From: an uncultured Chthonomonadaceae bacterium
Lineage (GTDB): Bacteria > Armatimonadota > Chthonomonadetes > Chthonomonadales > Chthonomonadaceae
Assembly: GCA_963835065.1 (NCBI GenBank)
Contig: CAWIEK010000007.1
Location: 1 to 62,132, forward strand
Reading direction: 5' to 3'
Length of the DNA: 62,132 nt
Shown here: one piece after another, positions 5,564-10,469 of the stretch
Layout: every line of letters begins with the position of its first letter
Position numbering within the stretch: the first letter of the stretch is position 1
Position numbers and translations under genes: made by a program
The notes under the pieces: generated by a model
Seen by the model: the letters and a program-made list of their open reading frames with translations, nothing else
The model's database searches: none
Told to the model about the DNA's origin: nothing

Positions 5564-5953
5564 ATGAATACTACGCAAGAACAATCTAAATCCGTGTCAG
5601 AGTTGGTGGAGGAAAGCGATAAACTCCATGACGTATTCGGCGTGTCAGTCAACCCTCTACAGAGTATGCCAGCCGATGTTAGACCGTCTTCGGACAATAA
5701 CAACAATTCTAATGGGCAGGGTACGCCGGTTGTGGACGAAAAAACCTGGGAGCGCATTAACGTTCGCAGGTGTGACCTCATCCGCCGAAAGTATACTGAA
5801 GAACTTACAAGCGCAGAACAAGCAGAACTTGAATCTCTTGAGGAAGCAGCGACCAAATACCTTGATACTATAGCGCCTTTGCCCAACTATCCGTTGGATG
5901 CGCTACAGGCGCAAGTAGCCAGGATAAAGACCAAGCAGAAGAATGGCTCCTGA
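5564..5953 (+). CDS. Hypothetical helical protein coupled to the HNH gene
   Basis: 129-aa ORF with RRCDLIRRKY..ELTSAEQAELESL; overlaps the HNH gene start. Confidence 0.7.
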   Translation: MNTTQEQSKSVSELVEESDKLHDVFGVSVNPLQSMPADVRPSSDNNNNSNGQGTPVVDEKTWERINVRRCDLIRRKYTEELTSAEQAELESLEEAATKYLDTIAPLPNYPLDALQAQVARIKTKQKNGS

Positions 5954-6254
5954 CATCATCCGCAAGGCATTCGCTTTTCCTGACGTGAAAATAGTTCGTC
6001 GTCATGGCCCGGCGGGGTATACGGATTACAGCAGCTACAAACCCTGGCTGCGTGACGAGTTCTCATTTCGCTGCGTTTATTGCTTGGAGCGCGAACGATG
6101 GAACCCCGATCCCGAAGGCAGTACCGGCGCAGACCATTTTCGTCCTCAGTCTATTTATCCTATTCCTGACCAACGATTACAACAACCTCTTGTATTCCTG
6201 CCTGCGCTGCAACCGAGCCAAACTCGCCAATTCAGGGGTGTTAAATCCATGTGA

Positions 6255-6525
6255 GGGTTCTTTGCCCATAGAACCGGCAAGGTATAGTTCGCGTAAATCT
6301 GCACATAGGCGGGTCATGAATAACCTCTCCCTGAAGTGTTCTCGTGGCAATTCAGTCGTTGAGGATTCCGTGAATAGTTTCCATGATGATTTTGCCTATC
6401 AAACCCACAGAAAATGCAGGATCATTCGCAGTGATTTCCTTTCTGCCGGAAAACACTTGTTTTCCGGCAGGAAGGAGCAGGACACGCCCAACTATACCTT
6501 TCCGATGCTATGGGCAAAAACCCCC
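6255..6525 (+). mobile_element. MITE, left copy
   Basis: Own ~36-bp imperfect TIRs (GGGTTCTTTGCCCATAG... and ...CTATGGGCAAAAACCCCC); internal palindrome CTGCCGGAAAACACTTGTTTTCCGGCAG. Confidence 0.85.
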
Positions 6526-6751
6526 GACTCCCAAGAGTATTGCCGACTGGCACCGTGCCAGGATGCGGGAACTGGGGGAGGAATGCAAGCGCAGATTCAG
6601 CGAGAAGGACGTAAGGTCCCACGTCTATGCCGACACGTCGCCTGAGGATGCCTATTGGATAGGGAGAAGCAAGGAGGCAGAATTTGCCCAGGCGATCATA
6701 GACGCGGCCGTGGCCCGAGCCGTCGGGGAGGATGGGGATGCCCAGGACTGA
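6526..6751 (+). pseudogene. 3' fragment of a captured gene truncated by the left MITE
   Basis: Open frame with the AGG/GAG-rich codon style of the cargo; its 5' extension lies inside MITE sequence. Confidence 0.5.
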
Positions 6752-6959
6752 CGCCGAGGACAACGCGAACCTGTACCGCATCCTGATACCGCAGCTCATG
6801 GAGCAGGCATTGGGCAAGGATCCGGGAGTGTGCGAGCTGTGCGGGGCCATAGGCAGGAACACGGTGCACCATCCGGTCTACGAGGGCGCGACCATCTACG
6901 ACCTGATGTTCGTGTGCTACCGCTGCAATCTCAAGTCAGAGAACAGGAATTTAATCTAA
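6732..6959 (+). CDS. Small zinc-binding HNH-like protein
   Basis: CELC...HH..Y...VCYRCN pattern in 75 aa; GGAGG upstream. Confidence 0.65.
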   Translation: MGMPRTDAEDNANLYRILIPQLMEQALGKDPGVCELCGAIGRNTVHHPVYEGATIYDLMFVCYRCNLKSENRNLI

Positions 6960-7035
6960 GCCATATAAATGGCAAAATATTCAAATATATTGCTATATTA
7001 AAACGTCAACGAGCGCGGGGAAAAAGAGATGGGCG

Positions 7036-7371
7036 ATGGGCTTTGCAGACAGGTTGCGGCAGGACGCACAGAAGGAGAAGCAGCGCCAGCAGGCGGAGGG
7101 CGATGCCGAGTGGGTACGCGAGAGGACGGCGGAGGCTGAGAAGTACCGGCAGAAGGCTAGGACCATACTCGCCAGCCTGGAGAACAACCTCCGGCGTGCC
7201 GTGGCGCAGGGGAACGACAGGATGTTCCTGTACGACTACTACGAACCCAAGCCCAAGGCTTTCGATGAGGTGGATAGGAAGGTCAATTCCCTAGGACTGG
7301 AAATCAGGGAGGAGCTGGAAGGGCATTACACGGAGCCTCCCCAGAGGCACAACGTGTACGCCGTGTGGTAG
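7036..7371 (+). CDS. Hypothetical protein (cargo)
   Basis: 111-aa ORF with GC3-rich codons and a helical N-terminus. Confidence 0.65.
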   Translation: MGFADRLRQDAQKEKQRQQAEGDAEWVRERTAEAEKYRQKARTILASLENNLRRAVAQGNDRMFLYDYYEPKPKAFDEVDRKVNSLGLEIREELEGHYTEPPQRHNVYAVW

Positions 7372-7527
7372 GGGAGGCAAGGCGTGCGCCGTTGGGGAGA
7401 AGGGGAATGAATTAGCCTTCTCCCGCTTCTGATCGTCTTACTAACTAAGTAAACCGAAGGCCAAACTTCGTATAAGTTCAATCTCGAAAACCTACGAACT
7501 TACACCAACGGGCTACTTATGGACAAA

Positions 7528-7818
7528 TCAGGTAAACATTGAACAATGACGAGAGGAAATTCTGCCGCCCAATGTCCAACTTCTATTGATTTGTCCATTA
7601 GATGGCGATTTCTTCGGTGTCTTATTGATAAAATCACGGAGCTGCTCAACCAGCGGGTCTATCTGCTTTCTCACCTCGTCCAGCTCCGTCGCCGCCTTGT
7701 CCCACGCGGCGTTCTCGTCATCGCTCGTGACGGGCTTGCTGAGGACTTCAAGCAGCCTGTGCTGCTCAAGTCCCAGAGGATTGAGTTTATCTAGAATCTC
7801 TTCCTTTTGCGGACGCAA
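7528..7818 (-). CDS. Hypothetical protein (cargo), start uncertain
   Basis: Amphipathic helical ORF; AGGAG RBS near 7836 suggests the true start is slightly upstream. Confidence 0.4.
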   Translation of the reverse strand: MRPQKEEILDKLNPLGLEQHRLLEVLSKPVTSDDENAAWDKAATELDEVRKQIDPLVEQLRDFINKTPKKSPSNGQINRSWTLGGRISSRHCSMFT

Positions 7819-7885
7819 AGGATCTATGTGTGATACTCCTTCTGATTGAAAATAGGGGACCCGGACGATTCCAAGCCCCCGGTGA

Positions 7886-8155
7886 CTACATGCGCTCCAG
7901 CTTCCTGTACACCTCGTCGTCGTTGCGCTTGCCGATGAGCGTCAGGTACACCGTGTCGGCGTCGAAGCGGTAGACTAGGCGGAACTCGCCGAAGTCTACC
8001 CTCCAGTATCCGTCGTGCCCCTTCACCGGCCCGCAGTCGGCGGGCTGGGGGTCCGTGAGCAGCGCGAACATCTTGTTGCCGATCTGGCGGTACTGCTTCG
8101 CCGCGAGCTCCTGGATGAACTTCAGGGCGTCGCGGGAGATATCGAGTTTCCTCAT
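7886..8155 (-). CDS. RelE/ParE family toxin
   Basis: A.KFIQEL, YWRVDFGEFRLVYRF, IGKRNDDEVY motifs; follows the antitoxin. Confidence 0.9.
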   Translation of the reverse strand: MRKLDISRDALKFIQELAAKQYRQIGNKMFALLTDPQPADCGPVKGHDGYWRVDFGEFRLVYRFDADTVYLTLIGKRNDDEVYRKLERM

Positions 8156-8180
8156 AGCGTTCTCCTGGCTTCGGCGATCG

Positions 8181-8423
8181 CTATTTCATCATGTCCTCGA
8201 GGATCCGCATGGACTCCTCCGTGCCGACGTAGCCGGACTTCTCCGCCTCCCTGGCACGGGCTCCCCAGTACGCGTCCTCAAGGGCCACCAGGCGCTGGTA
8301 CTCGTCGTAGCCGATCAGGACCGCGTAGCTGCGGCCGGTCTTCTCGACGGTGACGGGCTCCTTCTGCGCCTTGTCCATGAACTCCCCGAAGCGGGTCTTT
8401 ACCTCCGTTGCATTTGCTATCAT
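8181..8423 (-). CDS. Phd/YefM family antitoxin
   Basis: ATEVKTRFGEFMD..QKEPVTVEKTGR..AVLI; AAGGAG RBS. Confidence 0.92.
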   Translation of the reverse strand: MIANATEVKTRFGEFMDKAQKEPVTVEKTGRSYAVLIGYDEYQRLVALEDAYWGARAREAEKSGYVGTEESMRILEDMMK

Positions 8424-8501
8424 TAGTTCCGTCTCCTTACGTGCCTTCCAGGGTGTCTGACGCGCCCCTATGTTCGTTTTCCTACGTTCATTATGCCCTA
8501 T

Positions 8502-8942
8502 TTAATCATAATAATCAAGTCTGGGAGCCAAAAATTCTGAGGCACCCGCGACGGATGGGCTGAGATGCCTCTGGGATGACCTCTTCGCCGCCTGGGGCGG
8601 CACGGGTATCGCGGTCTGGACCGGAGTGCCGTTCCTTGCCGCCGGATCCGGGGCCTTCGCGGGCGGGGGAGCGTCCGGCCTGGCTACCGGGCAGGCCACC
8701 ACGGCGCTGCCGTCCGCCAGCACCCTCAGCTCGACGGGCATATTCGCCTTCTTGAACGCGTTGGATATGCGCCACCTGAGCGCCGAGGCGCTGCCGCCCT
8801 TCTCCACTTCGACGCGCACCGTGTCGCCTTTCTCCACAACCCCGATGATGCCGCCGTACGCGGACACCGGGGCGCGCTTCCCCTTGAACCTGAGTTCCTT
8901 CTCCTCCTCGGGTTCCACCTTGGGGGTTTTTGCCCATAGCAT
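8502..8942 (-). CDS. Captured hypothetical gene fused in frame to an ATG in the right MITE inner end
   Basis: MLWAKTP is MITE-encoded and continues into KVEPEEEKELRFKGKR... with cargo codon style. Confidence 0.5.
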   Translation of the reverse strand: MLWAKTPKVEPEEEKELRFKGKRAPVSAYGGIIGVVEKGDTVRVEVEKGGSASALRWRISNAFKKANMPVELRVLADGSAVVACPVARPDAPPPAKAPDPAARNGTPVQTAIPVPPQAAKRSSQRHLSPSVAGASEFLAPRLDYYD

Positions 8943-9194
8943 CGGAAAGGTATAGTTGAGCGTGTCCTGCTCCTTCCTGCCGGAAAACACTTGTTTTCCG
9001 GCAGAAAGGAAATCACTGCGAATGATCCTGTGTTCTCTGTACTTTTGACAGGCGAAATCGTCACGGAAACTACTTACGGAATCTATTGACAGAGACATTG
9101 TCACGAGAATACTTCCAGAAGAGGTTATTCATGACCCGCCTATGTGCAGATTTACGCGAACTATACCTTGCCGGTTCTATGGGCAAAGAACCCC
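8922..9194 (-). mobile_element. MITE, right copy (inverted)
   Basis: Reverse complement of 6255-6525; near-identical ends and a diverged middle. Confidence 0.85.
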
Positions 9195-9426
9195 ATGTGA
9201 TACGATCTATAGTGAGCATCTACAAATAGAACGCTCCCGAATTGTAACCAGACTGACGCCGGAAGGTAACATTCATATTGGAATTCTGCGACTGAACGAA
9301 CCTGACAGGGTGAAACGCAGAAATGTGTTTATGGAGCAACTGGATTTCTTGTGGAAGCATGGAGATACGCAAGCACAACAGTTGATCGAGTACCTCATGG
9401 GCTATCCTGATAATTTGCCCGATTTA

Positions 9427-10359
9427 GAGCCTATCCCAATAGGTAAAATTTGTGGTATACTTCAGCATCTTAGTTGCTGAAGTATACACATGTCAGACAC
9501 ATCTCTTGATGCCACGCCCGAAGCCGGTGTGCCAGAGTTTGCCTGGGGTTGGCGCATTCCCGATGCCCTGTGGGAGCATATCGCGCCCCTTCTTCCTGCG
9601 CCGACGAAAGTGCATCCTTTAGGTTGCCACCGCAAGCGGGTGGACAATCGGGCTGCGATGGACGCTATTTTCTTTGTTCTACGCACCGGCTGCCAGTGGA
9701 ACGCCCTCAATGCCACCGGTATCTGCTCCTCCTCCTCCGCACACCGCCGCTTCTTGGAGTGGGTAGAGGCCGGCGTGTTTGCGCAGTTATGGCTCCAAGG
9801 GCTGCTCGCCTACGATGAACTCAAAGGCATCAACTGGTCTTGGCTTTCGATGGACGCCGCGATGACCAAAGCGCCGCTTGGGGGGAAAAGCACGGGCAAG
9901 AACCCACCGACCGGGGCAAACGCGGCGCCAAGCGCAGCCTGCTCGGTGAAGGCGGGGGCATTCCCATCGGCATTGTGGCCGCCGGAGCCAACCGAAACGA
10001 CTTCAAGTTGCTGCGCGAAACGATTGAAAGCGTCCCGATTGCCCGTGCGCAGCCCACGCCTGAGAAGCCGCAGGGCATGTGCCTGGACAAGGGCTACGAC
10101 TATGACGAAGTGCGCGCCATCCTTGCTGAGTTCGGCTTTACGGCGCACATTCGCGCGCGTGGCGAAGAAGCCAAGGCCCTCAAGGAGGAAGTGGGCTACA
10201 AAGCGCGTCGTTGGGTTGTCGAGCGAACGCACAGTTGGATGAACCGTTTTCGGCGTATTCTCATCCGTTGGGAGAAGAAGCCAGCGGCTTATCTTGCCAT
10301 GTTGCATTTTGCCTGTGCGCTTATCACCTACAAACAATCTGGCCTATTGGGATAGGCTC
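9427..10359 (+). mobile_element. IS5 family insertion sequence (TWA target, IS1031-like)
   Basis: 16-bp perfect TIR GAGCCTATCCCAATAG / CTATTGGGATAGGCTC; TTA duplicated at 9424-9426 and 10360-10362. Confidence 0.93.
9490..10355 (+). CDS. IS5 family transposase, split in two frames near 9880-9905
   Basis: IFFVLRTGCQW, SMD, LDKGYD and RWVVERTHSW.NRFRR.LIRWEK motifs. Confidence 0.9.
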
Positions 10360-10469
10360 TTAGGCACACTGCGCCCTCCCTCCGACGGCATCGAAAAGTG
10401 CGCTTACAATTTACGCAAAGCAGGCGAATTAGAAAACATCTACTGACGAGTCAGAAGTATTATTTCGGG

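Follow-up and report, generated by a model that had tools for sequence, protein, structure and literature searches.

Introduction

Two Tn3-derived mini-elements (TIMEs; 50-500 bp, non-coding, with terminal inverted repeats, IRs) that bound unrelated DNA form a composite known as a TIME-COMP. TIME-COMP1 of Pseudomonas, 2,469 bp long, is inverted and has 5-bp repeats (Szuplewska et al., 2014, PMC4133298). TIME244 carries a putative resolution site (res) and its inverted copies occur in 135 of 142 replicons (Gomi and Yano, 2026, PMC13367494); the same source calls it unclear in most cases whether TIME interiors are working res sites. Here we describe a 2,941-bp insertion in a stretch of 62,132 bp (hereafter "the window") from contig CAWIEK010000007.1 of an uncultured Chthonomonadaceae bacterium of the phylum Armatimonadota (GCA_963835065.1). 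We hold it to be very probable that this insertion consists of two inverted, transposase-less Tn3-family derivatives around 2.4 kb of likely foreign DNA, which likely transposed as one unit through a Tn3 transposase acting in trans. An earlier description of the window, made with no database searches (the preliminary description), had proposed a transposase-free composite of two inverted MITEs (miniature inverted-repeat transposable elements) that was inserted as a unit. This core proposal stands; its suggestion of a different or atypical transposase family does not.

Results

The two elements are 272 bp (6254..6525, minus strand) and 273 bp (8922..9194, plus strand) long and enclose, in opposite orientation, 2,396 bp of cargo (6526..8921). 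Each has its own imperfect terminal IRs, and the inverted arms match at 95% (6255-6351 with 9097-9193) and 91% (6364-6525 with 8922-9083), in agreement with the preliminary description. Over their full length, the copies are 89.4% identical by blastn (274 positions) and differ in 29 of the 275 columns of a global alignment. The right ends of both elements point outward: the left element has a right-type IR (IRR) outside, with A instead of G at its tip, followed by a putative res and a left-type IR (IRL) inside, and the right element runs from an IRL-type end inside through a putative res to an IRR-type end outside with an intact GGGG tip. Size and structure are those of TIMEs, and the block contains no transposase or other transposition genes. 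With two such elements bounding unrelated DNA, it is a TIME-COMP, an already described kind of element; the likeness to TIME-COMP and IMU elements noted earlier is borne out in the testable TIME-COMP features.

An allele lacking the insertion was found in one 1,753-bp contig of run X2. The contig is ~95% identical to the flanks and fuses position 6246 directly to 9193, thereby skipping 2,946 bp, which is the element plus one copy of its flanking repeat. Such an empty site supports the insertion of the composite as a unit. The same contig also lacks an extra base at 6163 and an IS5-family element downstream of the composite. Pieces of the cargo are present at 99% identity in run X1 beside pieces of the host, and X1 is possibly the source sample.

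The origin of the elements becomes apparent from a complete 3,924-bp transposon with near-identical IRs, L038, which sits in genome G061. It is composed of a left IR, ~215 bp leading to the start of tnpR, tnpR, tnpA and a right IR, and encodes a serine resolvase of 211 aa (PF00239) and a transposase of 1,013 aa (PF01526; NF033527 at 727 bits against a cut-off of 500). The inner IR of the window is identical to the left end of L038 in 36 of the first 38 bases. Both window elements align to L038 from the left IR through the tnpR start codon and then terminate in a right IR; therefore, they are Tn3 deletion derivatives that retained the likely res region. Seven shorter two-ended relatives (203-337 bp) are built on a similar plan. 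The partner is of an ordinary kind, a Tn3-family transposon, and no transposase from outside that family was encountered between these IRs.

Matches to the element family were obtained in 12 of 61 genomes searched, counting the host genome itself (G000) and two weak ones (E 0.005-0.008). An exact-pattern scan of a species-level genome collection returned 18 distinct loci, all labelled Armatimonadota, which makes this phylum the likely one for the host too, and a metagenome scan 26 further loci; among named genomes, only Armatimonadota yielded copies. The plasmid collection PLSDB held no match to the whole block, and matches to the elements were limited there to the palindrome described below (E 0.2-0.8; the one examined was uninformative). 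No IR match was found in viral contigs and no match in Rfam. Our literature search returned no description of this element family, no mention of Armatimonadota among the 15 matches listed out of 71, and no paper combining a 10-nt piece of the IR core with Tn3 terms; ISfinder, TnCentral, supplements and subscription papers lay outside its scope, so the family may be catalogued.

Some relatives deserve a separate mention. Variant L023 (3097-3411) has a tandem duplication of ~60 bp within its left part, and variant L041 (9832-10034), 203 bp long, has no putative res site I. Genome G013 holds two copies, 99.95% identical (L140, 5139-9132; L141, 5505-9498), of a 3,994-bp Tn3-family transposon that has the same IR core and register, with IRs beginning GGCT and not GGGG, and a TnpA 45% identical to that of L038. 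In G061, an 18.6-kb contig (L124, G061:C745:1-18630) runs at either terminus into a right-type end, the 5-bp flanks of which match, and is possibly a small circular replicon with another inverted composite. In G032, right-type ends on different contigs (L024 on C415, L032 on C17) have a common 5-bp flank; the DNA inside this pair includes the 3' remnant of a tnpA gene together with an open reading frame (ORF) that looks TetR-like by eye, and a TIME beside a distant Tn3 transposase fragment, possibly as parts of one large mosaic composite.

The interior of the window elements aligns with the IRL-to-tnpR interval of L038 and has conserved repeats. Putative res site I is a palindrome, located at 6437..6476 in the left element, where its arms are of 19 bp, and at 8971..9010 in the right one. 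The segment immediately upstream of tnpR in L038 aligns with putative accessory subsites (9060..9135, plus strand). Read in element orientation, the central bases of the palindrome are AG in the left copy and CT in the right, with surroundings that are otherwise identical. Across 13 distinct sites of the family the centre is variable and never palindromic (GG 4, CT 3, CC 3, and AG, TC and GT once each). In serine recombinases, a mismatch in the central dinucleotide blocks recombination; such mismatches are reportedly the subject of a 1991 study by Stark and co-workers. If the palindrome centre is the crossover point, the AG/CT mismatch would block inversion of the cargo. The flip itself may be an accident of template switching, given that the palindrome has longer arms in the window than most relatives do. 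The right element alone also has a sigma70 promoter match (10/12; 9086-9113, plus strand). It points outward, in the direction of the target gene's 3' remnant, and probably represents the former tnpR promoter.

Differences between the two copies are patchy: 25 of the 29 fall within one run of 95 columns (reached in 0 of 2,000 permutations). Functional constraint was considered as the source of this pattern and rejected, since relatives diverge about evenly over all three segments. Recombination with a different member of the family probably gave rise to one of the copies.

The cargo likely derives from foreign DNA, because its codon use is unlike that of the host. AGG makes up 23 of the 52 arginine codons in six cargo ORFs (a seventh, short ORF beside nested repeats was excluded), compared with 1,539 of 37,631 (4.1%) in 678 host ORFs of at least 600 aa (p ~1e-18), and the AGG-rich codons pointed out in the preliminary description are thus confirmed. 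The GC content is 0.60 without the nested elements. At the edges of the cargo are two ORF remnants whose frames run into the elements, which suggests that both are truncated. The left one (6527..6751, plus strand) has no family match and is probably 5'-truncated, as is the right one (8502..8921, minus strand; 139 aa inside the cargo), for which no homologue besides itself was found among proteins of 76-244 aa and the ESM Atlas gave sub-0.9 matches only. Further inside lie a 75-aa ORF (6732..6959, plus strand), an orphan ORF of 111 aa (7036..7371, plus strand) that matched only itself among proteins of 61-195 aa, and a 96-aa ORF (7528..7818, minus strand). The first of these had been called a mini-HNH gene, a label that retains a weak PF01844 match below the cut-off (E 0.016). 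A donor of the cargo, whose taxonomic assignment had been proposed as a check, was not found. Indeed, apart from the toxin-antitoxin (TA) genes and nested MITEs, the cargo found no genuine counterpart among 301 genomes from the phylum, two short weak matches aside; none of the contigs of G000 is AGG-rich (highest 9.5%), and viral contigs hold no relative of the antitoxin Phd.

Two small host MITEs are nested in the cargo. Close to its right end, MITE A (7445..7601, ~76 bp) is split by MITE B (7520..7597, 78 bp), which has TTA on both sides, contains the 3' end of the 96-aa ORF and has two other copies in the host. MITE A is present, full-length or nearly so, on seven other host contigs, and one of these copies (on C16) is 100% identical over 76 bp; a 79% match occurs also in G001. 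The cargo has therefore resided in this host for a time sufficient for elements to land in it, and this also speaks against a chimeric contig.

The Phd-RelE pair recognized in the preliminary description was confirmed by matches above the cut-offs. The RelE/ParE-family toxin (7886..8155, minus strand; 89 aa; PF05016, E 2.5e-6; phrog_1213) and the Phd/YefM antitoxin (8181..8423, minus strand; 80 aa; PF02604, E 1.7e-10; TIGR01552; homologues up to 85%) are both intact. A terminator-like hairpin lies 3' of the toxin gene (7855..7880, minus strand) and a candidate sigma70-like promoter is predicted upstream of phd (8490..8518, minus strand; 9/12 consensus match). This operon may penalise loss of the block, and one could regard the whole block as a selected addiction cassette that the TA pair maintains in the chromosome. 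This is possible, though we do not favour it. In its favour, the operon has all its parts, with matches to a promoter and a terminator, while the genes at the cargo edges appear cut off, and Tn3-family transposons do carry TA pairs, ParE-Phd included (Lima-Mendez et al., 2020, PMC7157771). In those transposons, however, the pair abuts res, whereas here ~500 bp and one ORF remnant separate it from the nearest mini-element. Moreover, the rest of the cargo shows no spread in the 301 genomes of the phylum mentioned above, and a host paralogue of the pair with host-like codon use (G000:C36, 12183-12727; 60% identity for the toxin, 56% for the antitoxin) could cross-neutralise it. The Phd-ParE/RelE operon is probably a passenger that was captured with the segment, and a passenger role is more likely than a purpose.

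The outer flanks of the composite carry a perfect direct repeat of 8 nt, CCATGTGA (6247-6254 = 9193-9200). This repeat extends into the terminal C-run of the right IR, and the duplication is thus 5, 6 or 7 bp long depending on where the ends are placed. Because of the overlap, the window alone cannot fix the ends; all three readings yield an identical empty site. The register is instead defined by homologues. At 59 distinct homologous ends, not all of them independent, position 1 is G in 50, i.e., the terminus lies one base outside the GGG of the preliminary description, and the flanks are biased symmetrically about a 5-bp target (A at -5 in 37, T at -1 in 31). Three of the four window ends start with G in this Tn3 register, the exception being the left outer tip with A, a base found at position 1 in five of the 59 other ends. 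Both copies of the G013 transposon have repeats of 5 bp (AAAGT and AATGT) and not of 6-8 bp, and the same-genome end pairs in G061 (C745) and G032 (C415/C17), which are of a closer IR type, match at 5 bp and not at 6. No flank match of 6-9 bp occurs among the 59 ends. Since homologous ends and clade relatives define the register, the duplication is most likely ATGTG (6249..6253 and 9195..9199, plus strand) with a G-to-A change at the left tip. The preliminary description had given CATGTGA or ATGTGA; the 7-bp and 6-bp sequences are indeed present, but the 5-bp reading had been missed. With the end placed correctly, the odd length of the duplication vanishes in favour of the canonical 5 bp. As had been claimed, the inner ends lack matching repeats: they share no match of at least 2 nt with each other or with the outer ends.

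The block sits among housekeeping genes, in a host gene whose 5' part (5943..6253, plus strand) and 3' part (9195..9480, plus strand) form one continuous frame at the empty site and are joined in run X2. The extra base near 6163 shifts the frame of the 5' part. This gene has no match in Pfam, NCBIfam or PHROG and is called HNH-like from its CxxC/H/N motifs; distant relatives of it are numerous within the family to which the host belongs (16 of 61 genomes). With a 129-aa ORF of no assigned family, it forms a two-gene island (5564-6253) of GC ~0.48-0.50. An IS5-family element (9424-10362; DUF4096 and DDE, two frames) lies 230 bp downstream of the composite and is a second insertion in the same small region: at its position the empty-site contig has 30 other letters. 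A near-perfect palindrome with 16-bp arms (9455-9487) is located in the left part of this element, just before its first ORF.

Discussion

A likely history of the block can be proposed. In another replicon, two TIME copies would have come to lie head to head on either side of a segment and to cut the genes at its edges. A helper TnpA of the L038 type would then have recognized both outer right ends and inserted a copy of the block in the host gene, with duplication of ATGTG, and the cointegrate would have been resolved at res or via homologous recombination. For inverted TIME-COMPs, movement by cointegrate formation and resolution has likewise been deduced (PMC13367494). Tn3 resolvase has a strong preference for direct repeats (PMC9943657), and because the res regions are inverted the resolvase would not delete the cargo. 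Later, the G of the left tip would have changed to A, two host MITEs would have entered the cargo and the helper would have been lost. An altered transposon tip would impair transposition. Given the altered tip, the nested MITEs and a host genome in which no helper was found, the block is now probably stranded.

Several observations weigh against this scenario. The filled-allele junctions are bridged by no read or contig of runs X1, X2, X3 and X4, with X1, X3 and X4 covering pieces only; no RNA run was listed as containing the locus. In G000, which is 92% complete, blastn and an 8-mismatch scan returned the four window ends and two poor matches without G-run ends, hence no solo copy; the genome has no PF01526 match, no tblastn match to TnpA or TnpR of L038 and no small resolvase, its two PF00239 matches sitting in frames of 556 and 602 aa. 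The search for solo MITEs and an autonomous partner, proposed earlier as a check, thus came back empty in the host, while L038 and related mini-elements turned up elsewhere; the helper transposase is known from another genome only. The eight other family members with both ends on a single contig, among them L038, all lack a flanking repeat of 3-8 bp, and G061 has five left-type and five right-type ends of which no left and right pair up. The element family mostly marks rearranged junctions. Regarding the duplication, an assembly gap separates the joined ends in both G061 and G032, and chance alone produces some matches of 5 bp (10 when the 59 ends are paired in all combinations). A 5-bp duplication requires that the left tip underwent one substitution and that the new base coincides with the target base that follows; by count, 6 bp with a left end one base short fits equally well. 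Finally, the res assignment is drawn from position and symmetry, and the 95-column patch of differences is unexplained by one duplication event.

The 6-bp alternative retains the Tn3-type composite, with ATGTGA duplicated and the left end one G short, and we regard it as unlikely. It accommodates the sequence with one tip anomaly, and TIMEs sometimes produce 6-bp repeats (PMC4133298, in a table; PMC13367494). Nonetheless, a single event would have to combine a longer stagger with a short end, the four pairs measured in the clade are all of 5 bp, and an A at position 1 has precedents at other ends. A separate question is whether the block ever moved as a unit. The two MITEs could have arrived separately, or one could have been copied nearby and inverted resident DNA, and the identity of only 89% between the copies would suit such a course. 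This is highly improbable considering that the whole block is absent from the empty allele, that the sole flank match is outer to outer and that the codon use of the cargo differs from that of the host. That the block was moved by some other or atypical family of transposases, one that has GGG ends and duplicates 7 bp (CATGTGA), is scarcely credible and already largely refuted. It has the appeal of a perfect repeat that needs no mutation, but 50 of 59 homologous ends have G as their fourth base, which therefore belongs to the element; the tally of duplication lengths gives four junction pairs at 5 bp and none in support of 7 bp, with no longer match among the 59 ends, and the IRs have yielded Tn3-family transposases only. 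An assembly artefact in the form of a chimeric contig, which the preliminary description had linked to missing copies and unsupported junctions, is unlikely in the extreme: the host genome indeed offers no solo copy or partner and no read set bridges the junctions, but the target repeat at both outer ends, the precise empty allele, the nested host MITE with its 100% identical copy elsewhere and the cargo pieces in X1 speak against it.

Returning to the composite moved by Tn3 transposase in trans, a further idea concerns the centre of res site I. The family might use its asymmetric, variable dinucleotide as a matching code, so that the opposite orientations seen here (AG and CT) let like copies resolve cointegrates yet prevent inversion of the cargo. 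The result would be an orientation-locked, transposase-free addiction cassette, and inverted composites with right ends outward may recur in Armatimonadota. We consider this rather doubtful as a whole. Right-end pairs with 5-bp repeats are also present in G061 and G032.

While no new transposition chemistry is revealed, this locus extends TIME-COMPs, known from Pseudomonas and Enterobacteriaceae mostly on plasmids, to a likely chromosome of Armatimonadota, a little-studied phylum. It is a well-anchored case, with an empty site, a partner transposon that could be identified and a whole family of kindred mini-elements. Through the partner L038 the system becomes open to direct tests, among them whether the interiors of TIMEs act as res.

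The closest counterpart is TIME-COMP1, which likewise consists of two inverted Tn3-derived mini-elements of ~260-270 bp around ~2 kb of unrelated genes, has no transposase and lies within a gene with a 5-bp duplication (PMC4133298). Its copies differ by 1 nt, whereas those of the window differ by 29 columns, and it resides on a plasmid with transposition shown, whereas the block described here lies among housekeeping genes with no helper found. The composites of Enterobacteriaceae bounded by TIME244, IS101, MITESen1 or IMU resemble the block in the putative res that is kept, the inverted layout, which is prevalent there, and repeats of 5 bp, sometimes 6 bp (Gomi and Yano, 2026, PMC13367494). 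They differ in their resistance-gene cargo and in their location, 97% of the TIME-carrying replicons being plasmids, compared to a TA cargo on a likely chromosome. TIME244 composites are moreover found with both cargo orientations (52 vs. 62), while the putative crossover dinucleotides of the window are mismatched. Tn3-family TA transposons also have a ParE-Phd pair within a Tn3-family mobile unit, but they are autonomous and their pair abuts res next to tnpR, unlike the window, which has neither tnpA nor tnpR and keeps the pair apart from res (PMC7157771). L038, for its part, compares to Tn3 transposons of Bacillus/Cytobacillus plasmids (e.g., NZ_CP022984.1), which are autonomous and from another phylum: their TnpA is 56% identical, the tnpR-tnpA order is the same and one of them has a right IR with the same core. 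What is new in the block is its family of elements, its likely phylum and chromosomal location, the TA genes that it carries and the mismatch of its palindrome centres.

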